From: Psammoneis japonica
Lineage: Eukaryota
Direction of reading: 5' to 3'
DNA: 24,315 nucleotides
Assembly: GCA_008632985.1 (NCBI GenBank)
Contig: QPGO01000058.1
Location: 434,001 to 458,315 of the forward strand
Below are positions 1-24,315 of this stretch, one piece after another; the first letter of the stretch is position 1, and every line of letters starts with the position of its first letter. The position numbers and the translations under genes were made by a program. The notes under the pieces were generated by a model, which had not been told where the DNA came from, did no database searches, and saw only the letters and a list, made by a program, of their open reading frames with translations.

Positions 1-2950
1 TTGTCAGCCATGAGCATGTTGAGTTGATGTGTTGAAATTCATGAGATGATTTGAAAGCTTGTTGAAGCAGGAAGCTCCTCACATGCCTTGTGGAAATGCA
101 TTGTAAAAAAAGGGCAGACTGTGACTGTGTTGTGGAGAGTGGCAATTGTTGGAAGGGATGTTTGCGCATTGGTCACTCCCTCCATTTTGAAAGTGTCATT
201 GACCCTGAGCCATGACCCTTGCTGCTTGAGAAGTTGCAACAGGCACAAGGCAATGAGACTTTTTTCTGTGTTGTCTCTGCCACCAGTTTGTCTGAGCTCC
301 TTTTGTGGATTTGGTGCATGTCTGCATCTTTTTGTGGCTGAATGCATTGGAACAACAGACTCAAGACAATGGCGCAAAAGTTGTCAAGCAGAAATGATGG
401 AACAAATGCTCACACACCGCTGCAACCACACATGCACTGCACTTGACAAGCGCCATTGCAGCACACCAACAACAAGCTCAAACAAAGATTTGTGTTCTTG
501 AGAAATGAAATGAGCATGTCTTGAACAAGAGCAGCTGCAGTTGGCACAAGCCAGTGGCAAGCAAACTCTTTGTCTCAAGCAGAAAGTGGCTGAAATGTTG
601 GAGGATGTTCAGCAGCTGTTGTGAGAGGAACAAGAATGAGGTGAATTTTTGGAATGAATTGACAAGGCATGTGTGTCAGTGTTGATTTTGTTGTTGTTGT
701 TGTGTCTTTGCAGCATGCTCCATCTCAAGCAAAAAGCAATGGACATGTCAGAGGACTCTCAACAACCATTGTGAGTGAAAGAAACAAAAATGGGGGGAAT
801 TGTTGGAACAAGGCATGTGAGCAGCAGCACTTTGTTTTTCATTCTTGATGTTGTTGTGTCCCCCCTGGCAACACGCTTTTTCATCTCATTGCATTTCACA
901 GGGTGCAATGACATCTCAAGCAAAAAGTGATGGAAATGTGAGAGGACATTTAGCAGGAGCTTTGTGAGAGGAACAAGAGTGGAGCAAATTGTCAGAATGA
1001 CTTGAGGACAAGGCATGTGCAGCAGCGCTGTGAAGGAAAAGCAACAGAGCAAAAGTGTCCACACTCAGCCCTTTTTCCCAAAGTGCTCCCTCTGCACTGT
1101 TGCACACACTCTTCTTCTCCTTTGGAAATTCACAACTTTGTGCAAAGAAACAAGCTTGTCATGGAGAAGAATCCCTGCTCACTTTTCAAATGTGTCTGCT
1201 TGACATTGTGGAGCTGATCTTTGCTGATCAAACCAAGCTGTCTGCTGATGTCCAAGACCCTGATTTGCCTTTTTTATGCTTTGGATTGCAGCTGTCTGGC
1301 TTGCCATGAAAGAGGGAGGCAGGGGGGCAAGGTGCCATTTTGTTCCTGTCAAAGGTGAGTTGTGCAAAGAAAGCCACTGCCCCACAACCTGCAAGATTTG
1401 TGGGCTCTGCCACAAAGGAGACAACCTTGGCCATCACCTCATTGGCTGTCAGCCCATGGCTGTGTTGACTGTCTTTTGTGCCAACATGGCTGGCACTCTA
1501 ACTGCAGATGCTGAACTCTGGGCATTTCATCAAGGGGCGTGCTGGTGTCCTTTTGGGCTCTGAGGTCTTGCCATGATTCTCTGGATGCACACGGCTGGAG
1601 AGCTCAGCTCTCAAGCTGACAGACATTGCTGCATGCTCAACTGCATTGAGAACTGCTTTGTTGCTTTTGCCTTTTGAGCCACTCTTGCCATTGAAATCTC
1701 CAGCCTCTCTTGCACTCTTTTTCTGCCTTGCACAAATGCTTGTCACCATCGTTGCTGGCAAGAGAAGGTTGAGTCTCCTTTGAAGAGCCACGCAACAGCA
1801 TGCAGAGCATGTTCTTTTGCACATGTTGCCTCATGTCTTTTGCCATTCTTGCCTTTGCCACAACATTTGTGGCTCTTCTTGACAGCAAGGCCATGGTTGG
1901 TGCCTCAATTTTGTCATTTTCTTGGTTCTTCTGTGCATTGTCAGCATGCTTGAGGGTGCGCAAATTGCCTTTTTTGATGCTGCCAAAACAGAAAAGTTGG
2001 ATCATGAAGATGGATGTTTTGCCAAGTGGACCCATGACCTCCCAAGCAAGCTTGCAACTTTTCTTGACTCGTGGTTGGATGTCAGCTCCGTGCGGTGTCT
2101 TGTGTGTTCTTTGCCCCACTCATCACTTTGACCAAGATTGAGGAATCTCTGATTCTCTCCAGGGGCTCTTCACTGCTGGTTTGTTGCTTGGGACTCTGCT
2201 GTCACCATTTGTTCTCCATCTCCTGGCAGCTTCACATTTTGGCCTTCCCTGCTGCCTTCTTTTCCAACCCTCTCACCTGCGCTGGTCTCTGTTCCAGAGT
2301 CTGGGTCCTTGCTGCCAGCCACCTGCAAAGAGATTGCTGGTTTCAAGCACTGCAAGGCATGCACTGGAGCTGATGAGGAATGTGCTGCAAGAAAGATGGG
2401 TGACAACAACTTTGCCAGTTCACATCATCAGAGCTGGACACATTGCCAAGCACGCTGGTGCTTGAATTGGAGTCACACATTCTTGAAGAGATTGAGAAGC
2501 TCTAGAGGGAAATGGCTGTGCACAAGGCTGTTGTTGCAGAACTCTTGAGTGCTTTGGAGGTGCAAAAGCAGTGCTTGCTTGACAGCAAAGATGTCAAGGG
2601 TTCAGACTTGGCAGGCACTGATGAATTCCACGACAAAGCACAAACAACTCCACATGTCAACAAGCTTCCATGTCAACAAAGGTGTGAGGATGATCGATCA
2701 ACATTGTTCCTCTCATCTTCAGAGCAACCCAATTCATTTCATCAGCCCATGCGTGCCAACCTTGCACATGTCACATTGTGGATGAATGTCACTCGTGCAC
2801 TCTTGAAGAGATTGAGGAGCTCCAGAGGGAAATGGCTGCCCACAAGGCTGAAGTTGAAGAATGCTCACGTGCTTTGGAGGTGCAAAAGGCAGCAAGAGGG
2901 TTCGGACACAGCAGGCGAAGCACAAACGGTTCTACATTTCGCCGAGCTTC
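1..2950. repeat. Degenerate TpA- and CpG-depleted block (probable old repeat, transposon or relict gene region; family not identifiable)
   Basis: By eye about 5 TA and about 20 CG dinucleotides in 1-2900, with a strong excess of TG/CA. Normal composition resumes at ~2930-3100. It contains many overlapping Cys/His-rich ORFs with no recognisable domain. Confidence 0.65.
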
Positions 2951-3077
2951 CACATGAACAAAGAACTCATTAGTGAAGATGATTGATCAACATTGTTTCT
3001 CTTTCTTTCAGCCGCCCAATTCAACCACAGGTGGCAATCAGCCTGTGCCAACCTTGCACACATGCTACAGGTGGATG
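2481..3077 (+). repeat. Imperfect tandem duplication (~290-320 bp unit) with a relict coiled-coil-like reading frame
   Basis: tcttgaagagattgag..ctc.agagggaaatggctg..cacaaggctg at 2481 and 2801; gatgat.gatcaacattgtt at ~2690 and ~2978; gtgccaaccttgcaca at ~2753 and ~3045. The two copies translate as LEEIEKL*REMAVHKA and LEEIEELQREMAAHKA. Confidence 0.85.
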
Positions 3078-3504
3078 CCATTCCAACGTCGCCGAGCTTA
3101 CATTTGAGTTAAGACGACGGATCTAGCTATATCCCTTTTTCAGCCGCCTTGTTCAAGTTGAATTAATCTACCAACGGTCCATTGCTCCCAAGCTCGTACT
3201 GTACGTACTATCTGGCGAGTCCAACGACAAAGAAGAAAAAAGGTAAACACAGCACAATGATGCTGAAAGTTCGAAGCCTGCATATAAATTTATTTCCATT
3301 TCAAGCTACAGAAAGAAACGATACACTTCTTGGGAATCAACATCGTTGTCGCTTTGTTTGGGGCGTATCAGTGCAAATGATATCCGTCTGCCAACGCACA
3401 CTCTCGCTTATTCGGTATGAATAGGAATCAGATTTAGGTTGCAAAACAAGCAGTATCGGATCCGATCGAATCCAACAGCGTACCCCTTGATAGGCGGTAC
3501 ACAA

Positions 3505-4311
3505 CTATTGGAGCTTGCTAATCTTTTTGCTAGCCACGGACGAAACGATGGACGCCCAAAAGATCTCGGCACAGCTCAGTGCAAAGACTCTCCATTCAAG
3601 GGGAATGTTGTAAATCAGCACATTTGCAAAGGTCCAGACCTTGGCATTGTCCACAAGCAGACCTGGTACTTTTTGCTTTACAGTTTCAGGCATACTTCTC
3701 GGTAGATCTCCTCGCAACAGAGACGGGACTGGAATGTCCCACAGAGAATATACAATCGGGCAAGCGATGAATTGTTCCAACAAGATGCAAATGACGGTTC
3801 GTACAATCGCTTCATCGCTTCCTCCCCCGACAGCATCAAGAGTAGATAGCGCTTGTTGTGTTAATAAGGAAGCCCATCCATCCGCCATGTTGTACCAAGC
3901 TGCCCATATCAAACCACTACCGAGGCCCTTGATGATGAATCGGAGTGATCTGTTGGCATCGTAAAGGTCGTTCTTGTTGCTTTGCTCGTTGTTGTTTGCT
4001 GTCGATTGCGCAGCCAGATCCCCAATACCTGAAAACATTCCAAACGTTGCAGATTGGGTTACTAGTGGATAAGACGATACGAGATACTGATAATCCTGTG
4101 CGAGATCGGCCAGTGATGATGCGTACAACGGATCAGCACGGTGGGAAAGCACGGCATTTTGATTTTTCGTAAAAGCGGGCTTAACGTGACTCCATTTTGA
4201 TATCGAAGGCTTCTTCGTCGAAGCTGGGGTGCTTGTAAATGCCGACACGGATACAAGAGCGGTGATGAAGGCCGCAAAGAAGGTGAGGGAGCGTGATGTG
4301 ATGTTCGTCAT
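3505..4311 (-). CDS. Mpv17/PMP22 family membrane protein with probable bipartite plastid-targeting presequence
   Basis: Motifs YPLVTQSATFG..SGIGDLAAQ, D.NRSLRF, EQFIACP and KVWTFANVLIYNIPLEWRV match the Mpv17/PMP22 pattern. First ATG is at 4311. The hydrophobic signal peptide ends VSA-F, followed by an S/T/K-rich transit-like stretch. Confidence 0.85.
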   Translation of the reverse strand: MTNITSRSLTFFAAFITALVSVSAFTSTPASTKKPSISKWSHVKPAFTKNQNAVLSHRADPLYASSLADLAQDYQYLVSSYPLVTQSATFGMFSGIGDLAAQSTANNNEQSNKNDLYDANRSLRFIIKGLGSGLIWAAWYNMADGWASLLTQQALSTLDAVGGGSDEAIVRTVICILLEQFIACPIVYSLWDIPVPSLLRGDLPRSMPETVKQKVPGLLVDNAKVWTFANVLIYNIPLEWRVFALSCAEIFWASIVSSVASKKISKLQ

Positions 4312-5541
4312 TGCCGCCAACAAAATGCCTTTTTCTGCTGAAGACTTCTCAATTTTTTAGCGTTCGCATCGTCGCGCGCAACTGTATGTGGCGCAATGCA
4401 CGTTCCCGTAGAAGTGTGTAGAAACATACTGATGTATAGATTTACGTACAGGCGTCGTACAAAGAATCCCACGCAAACGTCATCATGATGTCGAAATGAC
4501 GAAGGCACAATCTGCGTCACGAAAACCCGGAAGTTTTATGCCTGTTTTTCTCAACGGAAATGTTTTACACTGAACAGATAATAGCGATCATTCTTATAAT
4601 CAATTTACATGTGTTAATTGTTATGAATTTATTTGATCGGAATAAACTTATGTTGCTTTGTGACGTGGTCAACGCATGTCACACCGATCTCTTTGGCCGA
4701 TAGTAAATTATGGAGTTACGACTAGCACAATGTGAACTGTAAAAAACGTCCCGAACACCCGTATCGCATTTTTTGGAAAACAATAATTAATGATAACGGT
4801 TTTTAGCAAATAATTAGGGCATTTTTACAGATGTAACCCATACAATTTGTACTCAAAAATCGATACTTGCAACACAATTAGAAGATTTTTTGAATGTTTC
4901 CTATTCAAATTGGAACTCAAATTTTGATATTACTTTTACAACTCCGACAGCTTCATAATCAATAAACAAGTTCGAATGTTTTATTAAAAGACGTGGCCGG
5001 CGTTTCGGTCCATTTTGGCGGCTCCGACATTTGAATTTACTTAACGCCAGACATTTCTATAGGACATCAGTTCTTTGAGCCATAAGTACGTAGACTGGTA
5101 CAAATTCTACAGCATGAGTCATGTGCAGTCATTTTACATACCAATCATTCAGACATTAACTATATATACAAATACAAAATATCCAGTTCGTTATGGTCTA
5201 TTTTGCACATTGTGCTAGTCGTAGCCTCATATGAAACTATTTGGCGTGGCAGATGACCACCTGTTTTCGAGCTGTTTTTCCATCAAAGAGAGCTTTTCCC
5301 AGCTTTAACGATTGCATTCTTACAAAGCAAATATTTGGCAAGGAAAGAGGAAAGTGTCGGTATCGTTGTGGGTCATAACCAAGTGATCTCATCAGCCAAA
5401 GTCCGCAAATATCAACAAGAATCGAAATCGTCGTCGTATTCCTCATTGGGTACTGCTGAAGTCAACAGCCAAATCTTCGGCATTCTTGCTCTGCTACTTG
5501 CACACCAAACTTATTTCACTACGCGCACCACAGTCACCACC

Positions 5542-6377: not shown

Positions 6378-7169
6378 TCATATGATGCCTTCCTTGCGCA
6401 ATAGACCCGTATAAAGTGCAGCATCTGAATCGATTGGTTGACTAACTTGTATCTGTACAACTTGTCGTGTTGCTTCATCCCATACGCCTGTTCCCTCCAC
6501 TTGACACAACGCCACCTCGTGATCTCCCGCTGGAGTTGTGGACAAGAGTCGAAGCAGGACGTAGGAAGCGCAATTTGGAAGCAAATCAAGCGACTCTAAC
6601 ACTCTGCTTCGAGTTTTGTAATGCAAAGGGATTAGAAATCCAGCATCAATGCTGCTGCGGCGAGATACATAGACTACTTACTTGCCGTTTTGTGAAAGGA
6701 ACGACTCCTGCCCTTTCGCGTTGTCAGAGCGATGCTTGAACCATTCATATCCCAGCTTCGCACAATCCTTTCGTTTCGATACTCCTTCTTGATATCCACT
6801 TTGTTTCCCTAAAATAGGAACCAAATCCTTTTGTTTTGGAGTCAAGAGTTGCAACACTCCGAAACCAGACTCGTTCATGGATTGATGTGTTAGTGTGTTG
6901 TAGTACAAGGACACAACCCACAATTTTGGTGGCTCGACAGAAACCGGCGTTGCAGATGTCACAATGTTCATGGATGTTTCCTTTTCCACTGTATCTGGAG
7001 AGGACGAAACTATAGGGCATGCCAAGGACCACACCGGCATGGATATCGGAGGGGGCGGCGGAATCTTGTTGCCCGCCGCAAATGCCGGAAAACGTGGATT
7101 GTGCCCTCTACCTTCTGCTTCAATTATCCCAGTGACGACAAGAACGAGAAAATACGCCAGATTTCGCAT
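6378..7169 (-). CDS. Flavin reductase-like (FMN-binding split barrel) protein; 2 exons (7169-6682, 6603-6378)
   Basis: Exon 1 has PVWSLA..TSMNIVTSATPVS..LLTPKQKDLVPILGKQSG. Intron 6681-6604 (78 bp, GTAAGT...GCAG, branch-like TTCTAAT) joins it in frame to exon 2, which has AGDHEVALCQV and LYTGLLRKEGII*. The N-terminus is signal-like. Confidence 0.8.
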
Positions 7170-10143: not shown

Positions 10144-10399
10144 AATCCTTAATGACTTAGCCTCAAAGACCAGTCAGCCTGAGACAACAGCATCGGACGT
10201 TCTCCCACAGGTTTCCTTCAAGGTTGTCATCAAACCGTCAGAATCGTACCTTCCAGATTCAAGCAATAGTTTGCATGTAAATCACGGCATTTGAGTGCAA
10301 CGCCAATTCTCCAATGTTTCTTCGTAAGCAAGAGCGCATCGGGAATAACAATTTTGGAGCACTGCAATGGAAAGTAACTAGCAGAACAAGAAAAGAACG

Positions 10400-13300
10400 A
10401 TGACTTGGTGACAGTCCGACTTTGTCAGCACGACTGCCAGTTTGCCAGTTGCTGCCCGCACAACAAAGTCGCATTTCTCCCACAAAAAACACTGATTCCT
10501 TCAAAGCCACCACATCAAAAAAAAACACAGCCACCAGGGCACCAACTGTTCCTCAAAACTCAGACCCTGAAGATGACATCAGATCTGAAAAAGAGAAAAA
10601 TGGCATCCAAAGCAGCAAGGAGCTGCCAAGCAAGCTCCTTTGTCCACCTGCTGCTTGGACTTACAGCAATCAATGGGTGGCACCATCCTGATGGCCACAG
10701 ATGATGATGAATTCAAGCCCCCAAGAGTCCCATCAAAGACAATGATCCTGTGGTGTTGCCAACTCAGAGTGTGACTCTGATTGCATTGACTCCAGCCCTG
10801 CAGTCATCCACCCCTTCTTCCCAAAATAAGCAACCCTTTTGATGTCATGGGTTTCAAGTTTCAAGGGAAGCTGGTCCAAGCAAGCCAAAGTGGATGAGTG
10901 CATTTCTGGGATGGAGAAGAGGTTTGTGCTTGAGAGCCACACACAAACAAAAAGAAGCAATCTTTCCTCTCTCCTGGCTGCGATCTTCATCAGAGAGCAC
11001 GGCACCTTCTGTTGCTCAGGTGTGCTGTCATTTTTTAAAATGATTGCAACAATTTTGGGCTGAGTTTTGTAGCCGCACCCACAAAACCAACACTGTTCAA
11101 ATGTTGCTCAATTGTCAAGTGCAAGCAACAAAACAAATGAGACAGCACATTCATTCATTTTGCATTGAGCACCCCACAAAAGACATCTTTGACCCAAATG
11201 AAGCATGGTGCAATGTTCTCCATTCCCCCCAACACAACCAGCTGTGATTAAATTTGCACATGCTCTCACTCAGCAAGCTTCAAACCCTTTTCCCTCTCTC
11301 AACATGCCAACCATGTGGTGCACACACCCACTCATGCTGCCTCTTTGGCTCACACGGCTCATTTGGGTTTTTTCCACTCATGCCACCCCCCAGAAGCCCC
11401 AAATTCAGTGCCTCTCTTGCATCGCCACTAATTTCTGCAAAGTTTGCATCACCCAAAGCTGTGCATTGTTTTTTGACAGTCTTGCTGCTGGTGCACAAAA
11501 CTCCAGAGGTGGCCAGTTCATGTGAGTTTCTGCTCACACTGCCTCCACACACTGCTCTGCCACTTCACTCTCTTGCACCCACTCATTTTTTTGCAGAATT
11601 TTACACAATGTGATGTTTTGCACACTTTTCAACTTTCTTGCCACTTGCACAAAACTTTGCACAATTTGTGCCACCCACTTGTTATTTTGCCAGCTCATGT
11701 TTGTGCAGTTTTCTGCACACACAAATTTGCAAGGACAAAACACTTGCTGTGCAAGGCAGGCCTGCACAACAGTCATGATGTGTGGTGCAAATTCTGAGAT
11801 GTTAATGTTGCTTGTGAAAGACTGGGCTGCCAGCCTTGGCACACCACCATCTCCTTTTTTTTATGTCACAAAACAGCCAGCAAACACTTGACAATCAAAC
11901 ATTTTGCTTGCCAACAAATTTGCCAGCATGAAAAATTGCAAATCAGAAGAAGAAGTGTGGCTGGTGGTGCAAGCAGCTAACACATGTGTGTCCACACCAT
12001 TGCACCAGCTGTTTGGTGACACAGCTGGTGTCAAAGCTGAAATCACTCCTTTTTGCATGTGCAAGGTTGAAAATGAACAGCAATGGATGAGCTGATGCAC
12101 AATGTTCTGAGCAACCCATGCACTGCTTTTTTCTGTGCACAAAACAAAAAACCTTCCCCCCTGCTTTTCTTGCTGACAGCTTGCGCAGTGCTCTCTCTGC
12201 TGTGTTGTCATCTGCAAAAAGGCTTTGTGCATGTTGGTGCTGAGGTTGCACAAGGATTGTGGTGGCGCGTGCTTCAGGCAATTGTTCTTTGAAGAGCATC
12301 TCTCACACCACACACATTTTGTGCACCCAGGTGCACATGCCACAATGTTGTCACCAATGTTTTGGCTTTTTGGAAATTGAATTTCAAAATTTTGAAAATT
12401 GCACTCTGCACAGAAGCAGCAACAAAATGTTTTGTTCAGGTTGGCACTGATGATGTGTGACATGAACCCTGCTCTTGTGCACATGTTGGCAAAGGTCAGC
12501 AACATCTCACACAACATGCACACGCACGCAAGTCTTGGCAGCAAAAAGGCAGGTGTGGTCAACAGTGGGAGACAGCCACTGTGCGGAAGCAAGCAACCCT
12601 CTGTGCAAGATGCTGAATTTGGGGATGACAGATTTTTCTATGTGCTGACAGTGAAAGCAGCAAGGGAGCTGGCATGAAGACTAAAAAACATGGTGATTTG
12701 TCCTCCTTGCTGGGCAAAAGCTGTCAAACAGAGAGAATTTCAGGGGAGAAGTGCTGGAAGAGCTTCAGTTTGATGCAGAGAAGAAGTGCTCCCAACCAAA
12801 GAGTGTGCAGAGATTGCGGAGCTCACCTGCAATGTGCTTTCACCTGAAATGGCAGTGCTGGTGGCTGGCAGCAGAGTTGAAGCCCCCCCCCCCCCCACCG
12901 TCAACTCCAAAGCAGCATTTAAGTGAGAGAGGGCATCAGCAGTGGGGAGGCTGGTGTGGGAACAAATTCTCACAAGAGCACCTGCTCTGGCAATGGTTGC
13001 ACAAATGACCATCACAATGCTCTCTGCCAACTGGGCAGTGTCGAATGCCAGCCAATGGGTTTTCCTTGTCTCATCAACTTTGCCACAAAAACTTTGAATG
13101 AAAAGGCTTTGCTTTCACAAGAGCTCTGGTTGTTTTTTGATGCCTTCAGCATTGTTGTTGCAACCACTTCACACAGTTGTGGGGAGAAATCTGTGCACAT
13201 GAGTCTCCTCCTCTTGGAGCAGACCATGTTGCTGGATGGAGGCTGAACACCCAGCTGGAAGAGGAGGAAATGCAGTTGAGAGAATTGTCATTGTTCCCAA

Positions 13301-13740
13301 GTCTCTTGGAGAAAAACCATGGATGTGCTTTGCCAACATGTTTTGCAGCCATCAATGATGGTTGATGACAAACAATGCACATGCAGGTCATGACTTCCTC
13401 TGTCATCTTGGCTCAGATTTGATGATCTGTGCTTCCAGTGCCTGTTCATGGGGCATGTTTGCTGTGACAAGTTTGGGGATCCCATTCAATGATCAGGCAG
13501 ATGAAGCAGATCCAATGACATCCTCCATGGGAGGCACCTTCCAGGTTGCACCACCAATGGCCACCACAGGGAGTCAAGTCATTGCAAGGCAGATGATCGT
13601 TGATGATGCTGGGTTGGCCGGTGGCATTGGCAACTCTTCTTCTGTGAGAGCTGCTGCTTGTCATAATCTCATTTCTGGAGTGCTTTTTGTTTCTGCAGAG
13701 TTTGATTTCATTGAGCAGTGGTGCTTTTTCTCAACCTGTC
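10400..13740. repeat. Second TpA- and CpG-depleted degenerate block
   Basis: Roughly a dozen TA in ~3.3 kb by eye and few CG. TG/CA-rich, with fuzzy boundaries. Includes a tgcacaa/ttttgca-rich low-complexity part (~11420-11800) and a C14 run (12883-12896). Confidence 0.65.
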
Positions 13741-13798
13741 GGAATCTCGGAGCAGGGAGGTGCTCGTGCAAAGCAATGTGCGCAGCAGCCTTGTTCAT
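12740..13798 (-). pseudogene. Probable relict protein-coding frame interrupted by TGA codons; product unknown
   Basis: One frame from ATG 13798 reads MNKAAAH...EMRL*QAAALTEEELPMPPANP...EPR*QRKS*PA and continues into ORF 13030-12740. Several TGA fit CGA>TGA in Arg-rich context. The + strand ORF 13362-14081 is in the usual shadow register. Confidence 0.35.
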
Positions 13799-14481
13799 CG
13801 CACTGGCAAGCGCATTGCTCGTATGGCTTGGATTGTTGGATGAAATAGAATTTTTTGCACTAGGTCTAACAGAGGAACCGCTGGCTACACCACGGAGGAA
13901 TCGAAACGAGAGTGTTTATGCATGTGGTGTCAGACTAGATGTGAAAACGGTCGGGATTGTCGAACGGAATCATGCATGTGACTTGGCTGGGTTGCACACA
14001 TTGCGCAGGTGCCGGAATAGCGCTATTTTCGCATCTGCATGCATTCAAATATGCGAAGTGTTGTCGAGCTTATTCCAATGAACGAGGTTCGACGCCCCAA
14101 GCAGGAGATAGACGCAGCCGCGAAGCTGCTCCCGGTTCCGGACCATAATGGCTTCACGTAGACGAACAATCGTAAATGGCCTAAGGGCTTTTTGATGGTT
14201 TCCCTTGGTAGAAAGTAACAGTCTAGTAGGATCGGTCTACACGTGAACCCCATCCGATCGGATCCCTTAGCTTCAAGGGTGAACGCCCCGACTTTTTTCA
14301 TGAACAATAAACAATTGCATGTTCATGTGAGGCTTTGATTTGCTTCTACAGTCGGAGAGAGTTATCGAAAGTGGTTTTGACCGGTCTTGGAGACCGACAG
14401 AAAAGCTCCACAACGCAAGATCCGACAAAAGTTGTTCGGTTGTATTTTGCATCGGCTTTCCCAGATGTCCCCACACTTTCA

Positions 14482-17277
14482 CTACCGGTACGAGTCTGTA
14501 ACGTTCGAGGCTTGAGTGTGTTTCGTAGGGATTGTTTTTCCACGGACTCTCCTGATCTTCCGCCCCTCTGTGTCCAAGATCAGCTCAACCAGTTTAGACT
14601 TTCGGGTGACTTGGCGAGGGGCATCATCCACTATTGACCTGTTACTTGTTTCTGGCAGTAACGGGACGTCGATTCTGGTGTCCGTTGCAAACAACAGCAG
14701 CTCCTTTCCACCTTTATAGAAGATCTTCACTTTCAACAAAGATTCCTTTCCTTCTCTTTCCGCATCACGCCGTTGACTGAAGTCACCTCTCACCTTTTTC
14801 TTTAGATATAATCCTGATGGCAACAAAACTGGATCATCCCTGACAATGGCTTTTCCATTTCTCCTTAGTTGTACCTTGACTAGCACGGGAACCTCTACAT
14901 ATACGTATTTGTGGAGTTCCATTGGAGGGCCCAAATAAGGCATTGAATAAGGCTGAAAGTCGGTTGTTCCGTAGTTTGCTGCACCATATTGCTGATAGTC
15001 GTTTCCCCGGCAATAGTTGAAGAGATAATTTGGTGCAATGTCGAATGGACGGCAATAAGATGGCATGGATTTCGTGAGCGCCTGGAAGGTACAACAGGTA
15101 AAGCGCGTGTTCGCTGCCCCTAAAGGATCACGAAGGGCTCGCATAAGGGTTGACCCAGAAACAAAGTAATTGCCGTCCTTGCAACCTGGGACACATGCCA
15201 CCTTTTCATACCCCGTCGGTGTGTTTTCAATGAGATCAGACCATTTAGAACAGTCTCTTGTGGCGTCACAGTTGGGGTCTTGATCGACGCCAGTGCCATA
15301 AGTGTATTCATCACCTAGTTCGAATAGCGAATGACCAAGCTCGTGAACAGCAACACGCAAGCCTTCTTCATGCAACGACATCACAGCGATATTGTCGTCC
15401 GTATATCCTGCTCCGCCGTACTTCAAACTGTTATGTATCACCAAAGTTTGCAGATTTGATCCAACAGAAAAACATTTGCTTGAGAGGCTCTCCGTCATTT
15501 CAACGTCACAACATAACAATCGGTCTATATCCAGACAACCAAAGTCGCAGAACGATCCAACGGGCTTGATAGGATCAACACGGAACACATTGAGTTGATG
15601 CACGCCCCAGTCAAACATTGGATACTGCCGGAAGAACCGATACGTCCTTTTGACTTGTTGACGCCAAGTCTCAAGAGTTGTGGAGTTAAACGCTGAACCC
15701 ACAAACACGATATTGATTGAATTTTTGTCAAACTCCTTTCCATATTTGTGCTTCACGGGGTAGCATTCCGATGAGGCCATGCAAACACCGTTTCGACAGG
15801 TATTCGAAATACAGTCAGCATTGTTTAAACACGCTATCCCAGTTTCCCGTTTTCCGTCGGGCGCTGGAACTTTTGGCTTGTCCACGGCTTCACCAATGTC
15901 TTTGGACACTTTGGAAGGCGTTGTTGTTGGCAGTGGTGAAGGGGAGGGCGATGGAGGAGGGTTTGGTGATTGTGATGGCATTGGTGTAAGGACTGCCGTT
16001 GGTGGAGATGTCAGTTTTATTGTAGGAGTTGTAGTGGGCCTGTCGGATGGCAACCTTGTGGGTGTAGGTGTTGGGAAGGGTGAGGGTCTCGACGTTGGAG
16101 GCACTGTTGATTCTATTGTAGGAGTTGTAGTGGGTCTCGCGGACGGAGACCGAGTAGGTCTAGGCGTTGGGAACGGTGAGGTTCTTGGCGTTGGAGAAAC
16201 CGTTGGTGAATCGGTTGGAAATCGGGTAAGTGTAAGTGTTGGGAACGGCGAGGGTCTTGATGTTGGAGACAACGTCGGTGAAGCGGTTGGATAAGATGTT
16301 GGTACTTTGGTAGGTGGTGGTGTCGGGTTCGCCGTCCGCGGAGTTGGTGCCCTTGTTCTGGTATTGCAGCACACGTAATGATAATATTTATCTCTCCGAT
16401 ACAAAGTATATGTCCCTGTCTTTCGTGGGAAAGCGAATTCGCTGGAGCTGCATGTCATGGGCTCGGAGCGACCATCTGCCCAACAGTCCTTCTGTCTCCA
16501 TCTGGGAGAGGGGCTTGAGCATGCCTTGTCAGTACATTCCTGAAGGACAGAACTCTTGATACCAGGGGGGCAACATGCATAGTAATAATATGTGTTCGAT
16601 TCCGGATCTTCAAAGGAGGCCACCTTCGAAAGGTCTTGCACCTCATAACCAGCGGCACATGAAAATGGCAGCCACGCATTTGCCCCCAGGGCAAAGCACA
16701 TGGTCTCCTCTCCAACTCCGCTCGGAGTGAGACACTTGCTTTCATCACACGTACTACCAGCCGGTGGTATGACGATGTTATTGATGCTGTTTTTGCAGCA
16801 CACGTAATGTGAGAACAGCCCACCCTCTGACCAAATATAGGCTCCTGTCTTACGGGGGGAAGCATAGACATTAGAGTCACACGGCATCTCTGGTTCATAG
16901 GGACCATTTGCCCAGCAATCAGTTCCTCCCATTCCGTCGGGGCTCGAGCATGCTTGATCCGTGCATTGTTCTTGTGGGATGATTGGGCTCGTTGCTCCAA
17001 CCGGGCAGCATGTGAAGTATCGGTAGGTCTCTCCCTCTACCAAATCCTCAATGGTAGCTACGCTAGAGAGGTCTCGAACTTCGTACCCATAATCGCATAC
17101 AAATGGATCTCGCGTGTTGGGTCCCAGGGCCCAGCAATCAAATTCAAAAATTGTGCCGGGGCTACGGCACTTGCTATCGTCGCACACATCTCGCAAAGCC
17201 TCGTTTGTGTGCGGGTAGTAAACAAGCAGCGAGAACAAAGAAAAGACAACCGCGGGTTTTATCCTCAATTTTTTCAT
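14482..17277 (-). CDS. Secreted modular metallopeptidase: signal peptide, four Cys-rich repeats, Pro/Thr/Ser stalk, small Cys module, peptidase M64-like domain
   Basis: 931-aa intronless ORF with a hydrophobic N-terminus. INIVFVGSAF, YGGAG, VAVHELGHSLFELGDEY and a Met-turn-like STLMR match the M64 (IgA peptidase) pattern. Confidence 0.85.
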   Translation of the reverse strand: MKKLRIKPAVVFSLFSLLVYYPHTNEALRDVCDDSKCRSPGTIFEFDCWALGPNTRDPFVCDYGYEVRDLSSVATIEDLVEGETYRYFTCCPVGATSPIIPQEQCTDQACSSPDGMGGTDCWANGPYEPEMPCDSNVYASPRKTGAYIWSEGGLFSHYVCCKNSINNIVIPPAGSTCDESKCLTPSGVGEETMCFALGANAWLPFSCAAGYEVQDLSKVASFEDPESNTYYYYACCPPGIKSSVLQECTDKACSSPSPRWRQKDCWADGRSEPMTCSSSEFAFPRKTGTYTLYRRDKYYHYVCCNTRTRAPTPRTANPTPPPTKVPTSYPTASPTLSPTSRPSPFPTLTLTRFPTDSPTVSPTPRTSPFPTPRPTRSPSARPTTTPTIESTVPPTSRPSPFPTPTPTRLPSDRPTTTPTIKLTSPPTAVLTPMPSQSPNPPPSPSPSPLPTTTPSKVSKDIGEAVDKPKVPAPDGKRETGIACLNNADCISNTCRNGVCMASSECYPVKHKYGKEFDKNSINIVFVGSAFNSTTLETWRQQVKRTYRFFRQYPMFDWGVHQLNVFRVDPIKPVGSFCDFGCLDIDRLLCCDVEMTESLSSKCFSVGSNLQTLVIHNSLKYGGAGYTDDNIAVMSLHEEGLRVAVHELGHSLFELGDEYTYGTGVDQDPNCDATRDCSKWSDLIENTPTGYEKVACVPGCKDGNYFVSGSTLMRALRDPLGAANTRFTCCTFQALTKSMPSYCRPFDIAPNYLFNYCRGNDYQQYGAANYGTTDFQPYSMPYLGPPMELHKYVYVEVPVLVKVQLRRNGKAIVRDDPVLLPSGLYLKKKVRGDFSQRRDAEREGKESLLKVKIFYKGGKELLLFATDTRIDVPLLPETSNRSIVDDAPRQVTRKSKLVELILDTEGRKIRRVRGKTIPTKHTQASNVTDSYR
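15905..16345 (-). repeat. Coding repeats of the mucin-like PT/PS stalk (72-96 bp imperfect units)
   Basis: tgtaggagttgtagtggg at 16021 and 16117. gttgggaa.gg.gagg at ~16070, ~16167 and ~16238. Protein units resemble PTSRPSPFPTPTPTR. Confidence 0.8.
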
Positions 17278-18420: not shown

Positions 18421-20403
18421 TCAAGCTGCGTGGTTGTGCCCAAGAGTTTGGCCTTTCCTTTCGTGCGATACTCGTGGTAGAGATATCGTGCGTTCCAGTA
18501 TAGCTTGATCCTCGTCGTCAATCTCCGCATCCCTGACGGTTTCGTATGCAGTCACATCATTAATACGCCAACCAGTCATGTTACCTACACTATGCTTGCC
18601 ACGAAAACACACATACAGTAACGCCGCCACGGATAGATACAATGCCAACAGGAGCAACCCCAATACCTCAAGCTGCGCAATCAAGTACCAGTTTATGTAA
18701 ATCCCAAGACACGGGAGATATGGCACCAATGGTGTCTTGAAGGAGACGGCTTCATGATCTGGGAGATGATGTCCACGCATCATGGAGCCTCCAAAATTAA
18801 CGCTCTTGGGGAAGGCCGACGCAATGTAGAACACCATTGAACCACACGCGCAACAAATGATGATGGAGAGTGCAGCCCACACAGCGGAAACATCGTAGAG
18901 GTGACTCATGAAGAGACCCGAGACAAAGCAAAGGAGATTGTACATCGAGAGAACAGGTCCAAGACGACGGTGCAACTGGGGTGCATGTCGCGGAGCACAA
19001 GCCGGCGCCTCGCATCTCATCAGTACCAAACACGTGTTTGTCATGGAGAACGCAAAAAGAATGCCTGACGAGATTAGATCGTCCAAGTATCCAAACGGAA
19101 CAAAGGTTGCAACAATTGTCATTGTGATTCCTGAGATAAGAACACCTGAGCGCAAGTTCCCCGATTCATCAACGTTCCCAAAAACATCGGGGAGGAGCCC
19201 ATCTTGAGCCAGTGCCAACTGCAGCCGAGGCTGCGCCATGAGCGAAATCAAAACAACGACAGGAAATGTAAGGACCTCTCCAGCCTGCAAATATGAAGAG
19301 ATGTGGCCACAGTGAGTCGCACTCGATACGATGAACAAAGAAAGCACAGCGTGCAAAAGATTGAATCAGCACGAACCCACCGCTGTTATTTGAGCCGCCC
19401 ACTCAATTCCATTGTACCGAAAAGCTGCAGGAAATGGACTCGTTTCACTTAGACTATGGTATGGTTGCATCCCAGTCAGCGCCAAAGCAGCTGAAACGTA
19501 AAGTAAGGTTACAATCCCGAGTGTGAGCAAAACAGCGCGGGGCATATCACGTTGTGGGTGAAGAGCTTCGCCTGCAATGCAGCACACTTCATCAAAACCA
19601 ATGTACCCAAAGAAGGACGATGTGGCACCACGCAACACCCCACTCGCGCCAAAAGGAGCAAAAGGTATCAAGTTGGCTGTGTCTGATAACCAAATACCTC
19701 CTACCAGCATAAAGATGACAAGGGCAACCTTGGTAACTGTGAAGAAATTTGTAACGCGTTTGCTCTCTTGGATGCCATCGAGAAGTAGCAGTACAGAGGC
19801 AGCGGATATTAGAGAAGCCATGGGGTTGATTACACCGCCCCCAGGCTTCAAATAAGCCGTGATCCATTCCATTTTGAAGTCTTGTACGAGCCACTCTGTG
19901 ACCTTATCGCCCCAGCTCCGCGCAACAGCTGCACCAGAAACTGCGTATTCCAACGTGAGACAAGCCGCAGCCAAAACAGCAGGTAGCTCACCCATCCCAA
20001 CATAGGCGTAAACATACGTGGAACCGGCACCAGGTATCTGCCCTGCCAATTCTGCATAGGAAACGCCGCTACAACAACCTGCCAATCCGGCAATTGCAAA
20101 AGACAAAGCAGTGGCAGGTCCAGCGAAGTTGTGCGCGATAAATCCAGATAGTACAAATATCCCTGAGCCAATCGTCCCCCCAACGCCAACCGAAACAAGA
20201 TCCCATAAAGTCAAGTGCCGCTTGACATTGCCAACACTCCCTTCTAGCGCTTGCTCACGTTGTTCCTGCTGCAGGACGACCCACAAGGGCTTTCTTATTA
20301 GCCACCAAGGCTCATTTTTGTGGCCTACAGCATCCATGCCGGAAGATAGGTTTTCCTCATTCTCGATTGAAACCTCTGCACTCATCTGCTTCTCTCTTCG
20401 CAT
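18421..20403 (-). CDS. Cationic amino acid transporter (APC superfamily, CAT/SLC7-like); 2 exons (20403-19381, 19284-18421)
   Basis: LTLWDLVSVGVGGTIGSGIFVL, AGPA, SYAELA..PGAGSTYVY, FFGYIGFDEV, MAQPRL and C-terminal FKTPLVPYLPCLGIYINWYL. A phase-0 intron at 19380-19285 (96 bp, GT...GCAG) joins AAQITA|AGEVLTFP. Confidence 0.93.
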
Positions 20404-20549: not shown

Positions 20550-23500
20550 TGACCGGCCCGCCTTTCTACCTGGCAACCTTTCTACGAAGAAGCCATCCGG
20601 GCTGCAGCCCCTGATATCGACTCCCTCCGCGATCTCATCGCCTCGTGGAACCCACCGAAGCCCGTGCCCCGCTAACTTGCCCCTTCTGCTCCTGGTCCCC
20701 TCCTTCCATTGATGCATCATCCCTTCCTGCTTCTGTGCGCAGCCATCTTCGCCAGGAGCATCCCCGCCTCTCGCTTTCTCATGCACCTGCGTCCTTCTTC
20801 GACACCGCTGGTTTGCATGTCTGCAGGCATTGCAATCATAGCCAATGCACCTGCCTGTCTACCACCCACCTTCGCAATCACTTGCAGAACAAGCACTTCG
20901 CTCCTCGCTCTTCCCTCAACACTGACATTGTTCTCTCGTCCTTCCACAATCTAGGTGACTGGGGCCCCTCGCTGCAATGGCTCCATGCTCTTGCACTCGA
21001 GCCTCCGCCTTTCCGAGCTTCCTGCCACCGCAAGCTCTCGTCCTCCGCCCGCAAGGAACTCTGCTCTGCTCTTCATCATGTGACAAGCTGGGCACTGGCC
21101 GCCTCCCAGCCTCTCTCTGACCCCTCCCACCTCATTCCTACGTGGCAACGTGACTCCACTCCCTTCTGGAAGCTGCTCTTACTCTTTGAAGCTCTCATTC
21201 TTGCTCCTGTCCCGCCATGCTCCAAGTTTGGCCCCACCATTGCCTCCCGCTTGTCCCTCTTCTGCCGTGGCTGCATTCGCCAACTCTGCCACGAAGCCCA
21301 CTCCCACACGCCACGCCTCTCCTCATCTTCCCCCGACTTTTCTGCTTCCACCTGTTGCCACTCCGCTCAAGTTTGCACCGACGAAGATGACTTTCACTCG
21401 GCCTGCTCCAAGCTCACCTCTGCGCTTCCTGTTGCTGCCGTCACTCCTGAGCGCCTTCCTGCCATCCTCAAGCTCTACCCTCCTCGCCTGCACCCCTCCG
21501 ACCTGCCCAATCCTCCTTCAACTCGCTCGGCCTCCTCCCTTCACAACGAGCCTGTTGAGCTCTCCTCCGATGCTCTTCTTTCCGCTCTCTCCAAATGTAA
21601 GCCTGGGACTGCTGCCGGTGTTTTTGCTGATTCTACCGACCTTTTCAAGTCCTGCGCCCTCTGTTCTGCCAAAACCCCAACAGGTGTTGCTCAACGCCCC
21701 TGCTTGTCATCCTTTCGTGAGCTTGTCCTTCTTCTGCTCCATGGCTCCATTCCTTCTTCCGTCCATTCCTCATTTGCTTCGAACCACTTTGTCGCTTTGC
21801 ACAAAGATGCCAGCGACCTCAACAAGCTTCACCCCATTGGCATCGGCACTGCTCTTCGTCGCATCGCCGGCTCCGTCGTCATGACTCTCTTTGGTTCTGC
21901 ATTTACCGAACACCTCCTCCCAGATGGCCAATTTGGCATTGGTGTCAAAGGTGGCCTCGATTATCTCGTGCACTCTGCTCTTGCCAACATTGAACGACAT
22001 CTTTCCTCTGCCGACTCTGCCAAGGCTCTTCTTCTTCTTGACCTCGTCAACATGTTCAACGAAGCATCTCGAGATGCCTGTCGACACGTTCTCATTTCCA
22101 CCCCTGCCTTTCATCCTCTGCTTCCCTTTTTTGACCTTCTATGTCAAAGTTCCAACACATGTTGGCATCGCCGACCCGATTCTTCCTGGGGCTCCTTTCT
22201 TCAAGAAGAGGGATTTGCCCAAGGATGCCCTCTCGGCCCTGTCTTCGCCAGCCCAGTCCTCTCTCTGGTTCTTCGTCCGATTAACCAAGAACTTCAAGAA
22301 CGTATCCCTGGCCATTCCTCTGTCTCAGTTGGCTCCTACATTGACGATGCTCACGCTTTCCTTCCCCATTCTGTGCTCCCATGGTTCCTTGAACGCTTCT
22401 CCGCCCTCGGTGCCCCCTGCGGAATCTCCCTCAACCTCCGTAAAACCAAGATCCTCACCTCCATTGCCGGTGTTAGCCCCATCCCTGCTCTTCCCCCTTC
22501 CCGCGCCGATTCTCTCCGTGCTGCACTTTCCTTCTTAAACCCTGCCAATGACCCCTCTTACAACCCCGAACTCACCTCTGGTGTTCACTTCCTTGGACAG
22601 CCCCTCGGCTCCCACGACTTCGCCACCTCTTTCCTTTCCGACACCTCCTCTACTCTCTCCGACAAAGTTGACATGCTTCTCACCCGTCTCCATGACAAAC
22701 AAACCCAGGCTCAACTCTTCAAGCACTGTTTTGTTCCATCCTCTGCTCACCTCCTTGGAGCTGACTTCCACTGCAACTTCGACCCCGACAATCCTTCCGA
22801 CCCCTTTCTCTGGACCTCTCCGTTTCAAGATTTCCTCCTCACCGTTGCTCACCGCTTTCTACACTGCGTCACTTCCTTCGCCGCTCCTTTTCCCGACCAC
22901 TCTATTGCCATCGCCTTCCTTCCTGCCTCCTTAGGCGGGTTTGGTCTCCGGGACCCAACAGCCACCGCCATTCCTTCCTTCTTGGTGTCGCTTCTCCGCT
23001 CGTTCCGCTTTGCTTCGCACGGTGTCAGCCCACCATCTGGCGCTTCTGTTTCCCTTCCGCGCTGCTTTCGGCTCTCCCTGTCTTCCTGGTCCAACCCTCG
23101 CTCTTCCCTGCGACTCCATGCGCTCTTCCGCCATTGTGCTCCCGTTCTGGCTTCCGCCTCTACCCTTTCCTCTTCTTCCTTGGCTGCCCTGGTTAAATCG
23201 GCCACTCTCCCCGGCCTGGCCCGTCGTCTCTACCACGAACATCAGCAACAAGCAGTGACCTCCATCCTTGCTAACTCATCTTACGACGTGCAATCTTCAC
23301 TCCCTTCATTGCCATCTCCGCTTACAACCTTCCTCTTCATTCCTTCTCTCGTCGCTTCCAAGCTCCCGCCTTTCTTTCGGACGCCTGCGCTGTCGCCGCC
23401 CTTCGTAAGCTTCGTCTCCCCATCCTTCCTCCGTCCCTTGTCAACACTCCCTGTCCCTGTGGCCATGCCATTCTGGACGCCTGTGGTGATCATGCCTTTT

Positions 23501-24315
23501 CTTGCCGCCGTGCTCACAAGTCCAAGCTTTCCAATGGTCTCCGTGACACTGTTTTCATCCTAGCCCAAACTTTGGGTCCTCTTGCAGAGTTCTGTCGATC
23601 CCCCAATGACGTTCATCTTGAACCCATCAACCTGCTCCCCACCCGCCCGCCTTCTCCGTCCCGCCGATGTCGGCATTTCTATCCCCCTCCCGCCTCCCTT
23701 TCCGCTCCCTCCCACCATCATTGCATTGCAGTGGACGTCACCGTCCCTCAAGCTTCCTCTCGCCCTCCTCCAGGTCTGCCTGCCCCCTCTTCTCCTATCT
23801 TAACTGAGGCACACCACTCAAGCGCGAGATTGAAGTTTCTTGGCCCCTCTACTTCCTCTGCCGATGGATCCCTTGTTGTTTCTTCGCTAACAACAATGGC
23901 ATCTTCCTGCTCCCCTTCACTGTCGATCACCTGGTGGTCTCGGCTGCTTTGCCCACCGCTTGCTCTTTGGTTCTACATCCCCCCCCGTCTGCTCTCAGCC
24001 CAAGCCACCCTGGTCCTCTTCCTCTGACCTTCGTCACTCCGATGCCTCCTACTCCGCCTTCCTCTACGCTTTATCGTCTCCGTCTGCAATCCTTCCCTCT
24101 GCTGACTCCGCATGGCGTCGCCTGTCCGCCGATCGCTTTGGAAGCACCTACCGTACAGCCACCCCATCCCAGTGGGCCACCCAAACTCTTGGCTACAACG
24201 TTGTTCTTCACCTTTCTACGCACATCCTCCGATTCACCTCCTCTCTCCCTGCCCCCTCCTCACCCATACCTTCCACAAAACGCCCTTCGTCTTGCGTCCA
24301 TCGACCCTTTACTCT
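20550..24315 (+). mobile_element. Non-LTR retrotransposon with restriction-like endonuclease (CRE-like clade), probably 5'-truncated, frameshifted, incomplete at the window end
   Basis: N-terminal C2H2-type fingers, then an RT domain. After a frameshift (~23330): RKLRLPI, CPCG..LDACGDHAFSC knuckle, RPADVGI, IAVDVTV, LLPFTVDH, TPSQWATQTLG. The strand is strongly C/T-rich. The clade is assigned from motifs only. Confidence 0.88.
20645..23563 (+). pseudogene. Reverse transcriptase ORF of the non-LTR element (largest open segment; last ~75 codons out of frame)
   Basis: CPFC..HLRQEH, CRHC..HLQNKH, FVALHK..KLHPIGIGTALRR, QFGIGVKGG, LLLLDLVNMFN, QEEGFAQGCPLGP, YIDD, GISLNLRKT, FLGQPLG, LPASLGGFGL. 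Confidence 0.88.

Follow-up and report, generated by a model that had tools for sequence, protein, structure and literature searches.

How can a stretch of diatom DNA come to be almost without TA, and short of CG as well, and still have the G+C content of its surroundings? The question is posed by a 24,315 nucleotide (nt) segment from Psammoneis japonica (GenBank assembly GCA_008632985.1, contig QPGO01000058.1, forward-strand positions 434,001 to 458,315), which is referred to here as the window and in whose own numbering all positions are given. A sequence-only reading of its first 2950 nt had drawn attention to a near-total loss of TA there, together with low CG and high TG and CA, and had proposed that a strand-symmetric process converting TA to TG or CA had been at work in addition to the decay of methylated CG. 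The answer reached below is that this segment, block 1, and another further along, block 2, are probably dead DNA that has been rewritten in situ by two context-specific transition processes within the same gene-sized domains. The first would be CpG to TpG or CpA, presumably by deamination of 5-methylcytosine in silenced, CpG-methylated DNA. The second would be TpA to TpG or CpA, an A:T to G:C change on either strand of the palindromic TpA, aimed at about the same domain as the first and reaching slightly further. Block 1 includes what is left of a silicon transporter (SIT) gene, and it is from the codons of this relic that much can be learned.

Two blocks with few TA and few CG

Direct counting confirms that the dinucleotide shift at the start of the window is real. 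Positions 1-2950 contain six TA, at 104, 951, 1275, 1499, 2503 and 2933 (about five had been reported), where 203 would be expected from base composition and 124 from the flanking TA frequency; in 2000 shufflings of the segment the lowest count was 165. There are 26 CG against 165 expected, and TG and CA, with 360 and 296 occurrences, are at 1.76 and 1.80 times expectation. For the flanks, i.e., the surrounding host DNA, the observed/expected ratios are 0.61 for TA and 0.94 for CG. AA, which had been described as intact, is undepleted at 1.28. Considered to its right-hand edge, block 1 (2935 nt) has six TA and 24 CG where flank frequencies predict 124 and 155, ratios for TG and CA of 1.77 and 1.81, and a G+C content of 0.474 that equals that of the flanks.

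Only this one block had been noticed. Block 2 has the same signature, with 15 TA and 16 CG against 138 and 173 expected, TG and CA ratios of 1.89 and 1.82, and a G+C content of 0.469. The two blocks together make up a quarter of the window and are set among ordinary host genes. Neighbouring DNA does use TA normally at 3.0-10.4 kb and at 13.8-20.6 kb, but this is not fully so in the region at 20.6-24.3 kb with a reverse transcriptase (RT) frame, where the TA ratio is 0.16-0.41 and CG is near normal.

Is what was lost matched by what was gained? Relative to flank frequencies, the TA plus CG lost and the TG plus CA gained number 249 and 220 for block 1, and 279 and 268 for block 2. In a simulation, every flanking TA and/or every flanking CG was randomly turned to TG or CA, with the fit expressed as the root mean square error over the 16 dinucleotide ratios. 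With both rules the error is 0.16 for block 1 and 0.12 for block 2, compared with 0.21 and 0.19 for the CG rule only and 0.25 and 0.26 for the TA rule only. The simulated G+C is 0.464 with both rules, 0.421 with CG only and 0.516 with TA only, so that just the two-rule simulation keeps it near the observed values. Conversion of CG only leaves TA at 0.50 and explains only about half of the TG plus CA gain. Trinucleotide residuals relative to the simulation (AGC/GCT 1.52-fold, ATC/GAT 0.68-fold) did not yield a clear rule.

The excess of TG over CA in block 1 (360 to 295, a TG/(TG+CA) share of 0.55) was entertained as a strand asymmetry and rejected, as native SIT composition accounts for it: when symmetric conversion is simulated on intact SIT genes, the share is 0.552. 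The share in block 2 is 0.484. On these counts the conversion is demonstrably strand-symmetric. The central inference of the sequence-only reading, a strand-symmetric change of TA to TG or CA in DNA whose CG was changed likewise, is supported by the mass balance and by the SIT alignment, doublets of CA and TG between repeat copies and an unconverted outer repeat copy, all described below. The AA ratio is 1.26-1.28 in the blocks and 1.11 in the flank. What has survived is placed non-randomly with respect to context. With both strands pooled, the 21 residual TA have T as 5′ neighbour in 21 of 42 instances, against 21% in the flanks, favouring TTA/TAA, and the 40 residual CG have a 5′ G in 32 of 80, against 22%, favouring GCG/CGC. 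As TA conversion removes TAA and TAG and never creates a stop, an open frame in converted DNA says nothing about function; the six-frame density of these two stops is 3-7 per kb in the blocks and 34-37 in host DNA.

A dead silicon transporter gene

What was block 1 before? Translations of the blocks in all six frames, with stops written as X, were searched against Pfam. Block 1 matches the SIT family, PF03842, in three of its six frames, all on the plus strand (E-values 9.4e-30, 2.4e-07 and 3.6e-04), with a best score of 103.8 bits against a cut-off of 26.8. A HMMER search with the best stretch of the relic gave 152 relatives with E-values of 1e-3 or less, of which the best reaches 1e-46; none of the 43 candidates from a word-indexed protein search was a match. 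A hidden Markov model was built from 48 of the 150 listed relatives, those of 440-660 amino acids (aa), and mapping with it reveals at least three frame changes (frame 1 to 3 to 2 to 1) and, among 334 aligned codons, five in-frame stops. Because of these lesions the gene is called dead, and on this alignment block 1 holds a pseudogene of a host gene family. The target is not recognisable as a transposon, and what is found instead derives from a host gene.

The amino acids that the relic would specify are skewed. Relative to expectations from the averages of relatives, the 334 codons include no Tyr (6.7 expected), 28 Cys (7.7) and 13 His (5.9). All five conserved Arg columns are changed, three to Cys, one to His and one to Gln, which is exactly the prediction for CGN becoming TGN or CAN; the invariant Arg codon of the G-R-Q motif is now TGT (Cys). 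At conserved columns, nine of the 11 single-step replacements that are C>T or G>A lie at CpG, an invariant Gly has become Ser, and a Thr>Met change has left the codon ATG. Tyr42, which is 98% conserved in the relatives, reads TGC, and Asn127 has become Asp after a 5′ T (T-AAC to T-GAC). Tyr content is at least 1.1% in each of the 150 relatives, among which no hypermutated SIT protein was found. In 34 intact SIT coding sequences from metagenomes there are 14-59 TA and 24-84 CG per kb, and when these are converted in silico, Tyr falls to 0% and Cys and His are at 4.6% and 3.7%, near the values for the relic.

A separate observation on metagenome SIT genes concerns two that are apparently intact, at 751-1750 of locus L017 and 751-2000 of locus L021, where the TA ratio is 0.11-0.17, that of CG 0.33-0.56 and those of TG/CA 1.4-1.8. 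Their composition could be due to strong codon bias or be a mild form of the footprint seen in the blocks.

The former nature of block 2 is less apparent. It is without SIT similarity, Pfam searches in all six frames gave no credible match (best E-values 0.27 and 0.57), and a protein-atlas search with its 243-aa frame gave no usable match. Nor did it resemble block 1 or any other part of the window in the comparisons made, among them BLAST in purine/pyrimidine coding and BLASTP of all six frames. No convincing terminal repeats were found by a scoring that was uninformative.

Conversion in place

Were the blocks always poor in TA and CG? Local duplications provide a means of addressing this, one of them, the tandem pair at the 3′ end of the relic, having its second copy across the right edge of block 1 (Table 1). 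Where the outer copy has TA, the inner copy has CA or TG in alignment. A 26 nt unit (family D5) has no CG and no TA at 2657, inside the block, two CG and no TA at 2939, at the edge, and two CG and two TA at 3089, outside. Retention of TA and CG by the outer unit, and absence of both from the inner, point to conversion in place and not to an origin free of TA. Adjacent double transitions between repeat copies tell of the strands involved: 10 of 14 are CA versus TG, just one of eight possible classes, as is expected where both copies inherited a palindromic CG or TA at duplication and it was then converted on one strand in the first copy and on the opposite strand in the second. In the three-unit array upstream of the relic such doublets number two, three and two in the three pairwise comparisons, which are not independent, and identity there is about 90% in purine/pyrimidine coding against 66-89% at the nucleotide level. 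Repeat copies in block 1 have 5-7% transversion differences. Five independent lines of evidence, namely the mass balance, the simulation, the SIT alignment, the doublets and the repeat family at the edge, concur that the DNA was converted in place, after local duplications, and was not born poor in TA and CG.

An independent sequencing run

One public sequencing run, coded X1, contains 97% of the words sampled from 1-4200. Its reads are taken as accurate from its clean, deep 31-mer contigs, its library type not being on record. An X1 contig of 5420 nt, with a mean word depth of 70.8, aligns to 1-3662 with four differences, all of them at 3350-3524. Over 1-3349, which covers the whole of block 1, contigs of word depth 58-71 have no difference from the window, so that the presence of TA in other data at these sites, which the sequence-only reading had wanted checked, is not what is seen. 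Contigs at depth 58-61 span block 2. There are scattered differences between X1 and the window elsewhere, and X1 is thus not a mere copy of the assembly.

In block 2 the window and X1 differ by 17 substitutions. Eight of these set CG against TG or CA, with the CG on the window's side in four and on that of X1 in the other four. Over three successive steps the window has CG-CG-TG where X1 has CA-CA-CG, and at one site TG of the window faces CA of X1.

What weighs against rewriting by two processes

Several observations sit uneasily with the account given so far and are best faced together. We infer the direction of change; it is not read from an alignment of copy to consensus with an unmutated progenitor. 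The simulation with both rules misses GC, observed at 1.35-1.38 of expectation and simulated at 1.09, and AT, observed at 0.75-0.79 and simulated at 0.95. Of six single-step replacements by A>G or T>C in the conserved SIT columns, only two have a TpA context, none of the three T>C changes has a 3′ A, and one 98%-conserved Tyr reads Phe, a transversion. Altogether 98 conserved columns carry 12 transversions and 16 multi-step replacements which, with the frame changes and stops, mark the relic as old, and in a relic of such apparent age slow context-specific decay is indistinguishable from a burst of hypermutation. None of the SIT-bearing metagenome contigs (80 loci, 342 kb, 1244 windows) is as extreme, the minimum ratios there being 0.11 for TA and 0.16 for CG. 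Finally, the 10 residual TA in 11422-13735 are all shared by the window and X1, a single pair of sequences that so gives no sign of current TA activity.

A precedent in Bigelowiella and comparison with other systems

The sequence-only reading knew of no described system that does this. That is now out of date, since A:T to G:C hypermutation restricted to TpA has been measured in mutation-accumulation lines of the chlorarachniophyte Bigelowiella natans (Mettrop et al., bioRxiv 10.64898/2026.01.13.699255). According to the accessible text of that preprint, 231 of 302 nuclear mutations were in two integrated viral regions, and 230 of these 231 were A>G or T>C, all at TpA. The rate is given as about 6e-7 per site per generation, some 1000-fold above background, and was attained in some lines only; 124 TpA-depleted clusters were also found, and an ADAT2-like deaminase acting on adenine in DNA is the authors' proposal. 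The TA change in the blocks has a signature that matches this regulated hypermutation. The TpA signature itself, having been described in 2026 in a different supergroup, is not categorically new.

How alike are the two cases? In both, as far as the preprint's accessible text goes, TpA becomes TpG on one strand and CpA on the other (seen here by its footprint, a TA ratio of 0.03-0.07 with matching TG and CA gain), the change is confined to discrete regions (here two blocks, of at least 2.9 kb and 3.3 kb), there is long-term clustered TpA depletion with CpA and TpG enrichment, and many affected sequences are degraded and unannotated. The TpA-poor coding sequences of B. natans are, from the same source, enriched in reverse transcriptase and transposase domains, with which the TA-poor RT frame in this window fits. 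The differences are several. The host here is a diatom, a stramenopile, and B. natans is a rhizarian. Block 1 is a pseudogene of the host's SIT family, whereas in B. natans the target reported is viral DNA. Loss is much more complete here than in the B. natans giant-virus region, for which a rho of 0.45 is given. CpG has gone from the same domains here, and the preprint text, in its accessible form, never mentions CpG. Lastly, de novo mutations were measured there, whereas here there is a footprint in a genome sequence. Three things are new in the present case: the host is a diatom, a target comes from a host gene, and conversion is nearly complete and goes together with CpG loss. It is the footprint of a localized DNA-mutating process that was previously reported only once, in an unrelated alga. 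A literature search did not find a diatom report of TA loss or of mutation like that of fungal repeat-induced point mutation (RIP), and Maumus 2009 has no mention of hypermutation, TpA, deamination or dinucleotide.

Fungal RIP is a natural comparison, as it too permanently hypermutates selected tracts by transitions, within edges that are fairly sharp, inactivates genes and has a dinucleotide footprint. However, as described in the available part of PMC2621366, RIP changes CpA to TpA, creating TA and lowering G+C. Here TA is removed, CA is enriched 1.8-fold, and the G+C of both blocks is close to that of the flank.

Decay of methylated CpG has the CG to TG/CA footprint seen here (CG ratio 0.09-0.15, with residual CpGs polymorphic between the window and X1), but it leaves TA intact and so is insufficient alone for the composition of the blocks. 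Its substrate is known in diatoms: repeat methylation depends on DNMT5a (Hoguin et al. 2023, PMC9998398, in the text available), and repressive 5-methylcytosine on repetitive and silent genes is described in the accessible text of PMC12344493. APOBEC and ADAR editing are similar in making context-specific transitions in selfish or foreign sequences, and, for adenosine editing, in the preference for a 5′ U or T. However, APOBEC acts on C, and ADAR acts on RNA, edits after A as well and would leave an asymmetry between strands, in contrast to the equality of strands and the sparing of AA in the blocks.

What marks the blocks for conversion?

Might duplication be the trigger, as in fungal RIP, so that a second copy targets the DNA and the mutated tract is the duplicated tract? 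We consider this unlikely, though it fares best of the alternatives. SIT genes are a multi-copy family, and block 1 ends close to the 3′ end of the gene. Further X1 contigs overlie parts of block 1 at below 99% likeness, with loose ends at 913, 1944 and 2349, and two of the three 30 nt loose ends are free of TA and CG. Many diatoms carry DNMT4, of unknown function and related to the fungal RIP factor RID (Hoguin et al. 2023, PMC9998398, again as far as its available text goes). However, a partner copy has not been seen, blocks 1 and 2 resemble neither each other nor the rest of the window, even when purine/pyrimidine-coded, and just 1.4 kb from block 1 there is a high-copy repeat that has escaped. 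The X1 word depth of this repeat, at 4357-5324, is 703-797 compared with 58-71 nearby, which suggests about 12 copies, and within it (4501-5000) the TA ratio is a normal 0.72 and that of CG 1.45; perhaps it is below a length threshold. Direction by repeats, as the sequence-only reading had supposed, is accordingly not borne out by this neighbour. One X1 contig omits 4775-4977 of the repeat.

One process or two?

If conversion of dead DNA in place is taken as the starting point, are two processes needed? At all three visible edges the TA-free zone is wider than the CG-free zone by 80-160 nt, edges being resolved to about 100 nt. Summed over the three margins so defined (Table 1), there are two TA where 14.1 are expected, and 18 CG where 17.9 are expected; as the margins were defined post hoc from the same positions, the Poisson figure of 8e-5 is optimistic. 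We read this as two processes that would have a common target, with CpG decay apparently still running and TA conversion episodic, or finished at this locus.

The alternative is that a single machine makes both changes. It could be an oxidase of TET/JBP type acting on thymine and 5-methylcytosine in pyrimidine-purine palindromes, or one deaminase that edits both A and C. With the former, 5-formyluracil would pair with G, and oxidised 5-methylcytosine would be read as T. The domains of TA and CG loss do essentially coincide, and saturation is similar, with 5-11% of TA and 9-15% of CG surviving; in addition, the B. natans preprint, in its accessible text, refers to ADAT2 enzymes for which A and C in DNA are both substrates. 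Nevertheless we give a single machine somewhat less credence even than a trigger by duplication. Apart from the wider TA-free zone at three of three edges, with the caution about post hoc margins already given, the allelic differences in block 2 fall on CG sites (eight of the 17) and on no residual TA, and what is accessible of the B. natans text is without any CpG effect.

The RT frame is also at odds with a single machine, being poor in TA with near-normal CG. Its 972 codons have TA ratios of 0.14, 0.27 and 0.37 at the three codon positions, where those for CG are 0.96, 0.65 and 0.71. In six of seven host open reading frames (ORFs) the corresponding TA values are 0.38-1.0, one unannotated ORF falling to 0.19 at one position. 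The RT frame specifies 0.6% Tyr and 5.1% His, and its G+C is 56%. It may be a case of TA-only conversion or of an early stage of conversion, in a retroelement that is partly converted, or one of evolved avoidance of TA.

How might TA be converted?

To return to rewriting by two processes, the domains would be methylated and silenced, and the TA process would be driven by an enzyme. The mechanism that we prefer, while rating it at a little below an even chance, has adenine deaminated to hypoxanthine by an enzyme like TadA/ADAT2. The natural tRNA target of ADAT2/TadA, A34, follows U33. A poorer candidate, considerably behind it, is mispairing of oxidised thymine generated by an enzyme of TET/JBP type, with other mechanisms accounting for the remainder. 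Whatever the chemistry, the predicted effect is permanent inactivation of the targeted DNA, and the predicted side effect is the loss of TAA and TAG stops with the appearance of long spurious open frames.

Could A>G changes have arisen in RNA by ADAR-like A-to-I hyperediting, with subsequent fixation by retro-copying, or by error-prone repair of the Pol eta type acting at WA after T:G mismatches? Either route yields A>G preferentially where the 5′ neighbour is T (the B. natans preprint's accessible text remarks on the 5′ U preference of ADAR), and Pol eta was among the candidates of the sequence-only reading. Both also act at AA, however, which is undepleted in the blocks and indeed above its flank level, a feature that disfavours Pol eta and RNA editing. 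The balance of TG and CA, once native SIT strand composition is allowed for, means that the strands have been equally affected, and the inclusion of upstream non-coding DNA in block 1 is unlike a processed copy. These routes are very improbable.

Scarcely better placed, and by our estimate slightly worse, is the notion that the composition is intrinsic or selected, the blocks having always been TA- and CG-poor as a foreign element might be, or by avoidance of CpG and UpA like that of RNA viruses. Joint suppression of CpG and UpA does occur in RNA viruses and in cytoplasmic mRNAs, as related in the available text of PMC3829696. However, the ancestor of block 1 was a SIT gene. All 150 of its relatives have Tyr codons and all 34 intact coding sequences have at least 14 TA per kb, and this speaks against the intrinsically TA-free ancestor that the sequence-only reading had named as a way of being wrong. 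The depletion also takes in over 1.1 kb of upstream DNA that is non-coding, the outer member of the edge-crossing repeat family is unconverted, and with the gene broken, selection on its RNA is implausible.

Modified bases can produce systematic miscalls on some long-read platforms, and the library type of X1 is unrecorded, but an artefact of sequencing, base-calling or assembly on heavily modified DNA is the least probable explanation of all, as the X1 contig matches block 1 without differences while X1 differs from the window elsewhere, and the frameshifts, transversions and repeat-copy doublets are not products of miscalling.

Wider relevance

Do diatoms, then, have an active editor that is targeted to domains and turns TpA into TpG or CpA in silenced DNA beside CpG methylation, being the same system as that of Bigelowiella? 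The idea is attractive and we put it forward tentatively, judging it possible and the contrary more so. If it is true, an old genome defence extending across the stramenopile-alveolate-rhizarian (SAR) supergroup would act on duplicated host genes, viruses and retroelements, and the enzyme responsible would amount to a TA-specific base editor of double-stranded DNA that occurs in nature. Were the process the same as that in Bigelowiella, TpA hypermutation would be a wider eukaryotic means of permanently disabling silenced DNA, including in the ecologically dominant diatoms. The locus is a strong lead toward a widespread mechanism. Model diatoms with genetic tools exist, and the enzyme could be sought in them if the footprint is present there. 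The coupling to CpG loss, together with the wider TA-free zone, offers a handle on how targets are chosen. There is a practical side as well. Converted DNA has long spurious open frames and escapes word-based homology search, which distorts diatom gene counts and the detection of pseudogenes.

Features of the window

Table 1. Positions in the window of the blocks, their margins, and the repeats and frames discussed (expected counts after "vs")
Feature	Position	Strand	Remarks
Block 1, TA- and CG-depleted domain	1..2935		continues past left end of window
Block 2, TA- and CG-depleted domain	10476..13735		3260 nt; sequence unrelated to block 1
Block 1 right margin, TA-poor, CG-normal	2903..3065		TA 2 vs 6.9; CG 6 vs 8.7
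Block 2 left margin, TA-free, CG-normal	10380..10470		TA 0 vs 3.8; CG 5 vs 4.8
Block 2 right margin, TA-free, CG-normal	13740..13821		TA 0 vs 3.5; CG 7 vs 4.4
SIT (PF03842) pseudogene core	1172..2319	+	Pfam match and HMM mapping
SIT relic frames	frame 1, 1255-1725; frame 3, 1767 to ~1900; frame 2, 1901-2041; frame 1, 2056-2319	+	
Three degenerate tandem units, ~150-190 nt each	540..1045	+	upstream of SIT relic, within block 1; families D3, D4; alignment A2
Two tandem copies, ~320 nt	2458..3130	+	3′ end of relic; copy 2 straddles block 1 right edge; family D2; alignment A1
High-copy AT-rich repeat with inverted arms	4357..5324		unconverted, internal control; arms of 35 nt at 4700-4734 and 5206-5240
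972-codon open frame with reverse transcriptase domain	20645..23563	+	RVT_1 E-value 2.2e-07 (weak); region extends to 24315

Neighbouring genes

The host genes around the blocks encode Mpv17/PMP22, DcpS/HIT, a ModF-like ABC ATPase, an M64-like protease and an amino-acid permease. The best named matches of the ABC protein are from Nitzschia, Fragilaria, Mayamaea, Fistulifera and Seminavis, at 46-52% identity, with the top match at 59%; for the M64-like protein there is a named match from Cylindrotheca. By its host proteins the chromosome thus belongs to a diatom and not to Bigelowiella.

A contig from another run, X2, skips 78 nt at 6603-6682, where the ends are CT..AC, i.e., GT..AG on the minus strand, as though an intron had been spliced out of a minus-strand transcript. 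The listing marks X2 as 'DNA?', yet it behaves like RNA. It covers genic parts only and neither block, which is not evidence on expression. Two same-frame ORFs of the amino-acid permease are separated by a single TGA at 19366-19368 on the minus strand, and the sequence around it, beginning GTGGGT, could be a short intron. In the M64-like protease gene there are 72 and 96 nt tandem repeats at 16018-16283, also on the minus strand, and its relatives carry PT-repeat domains (PF04886).

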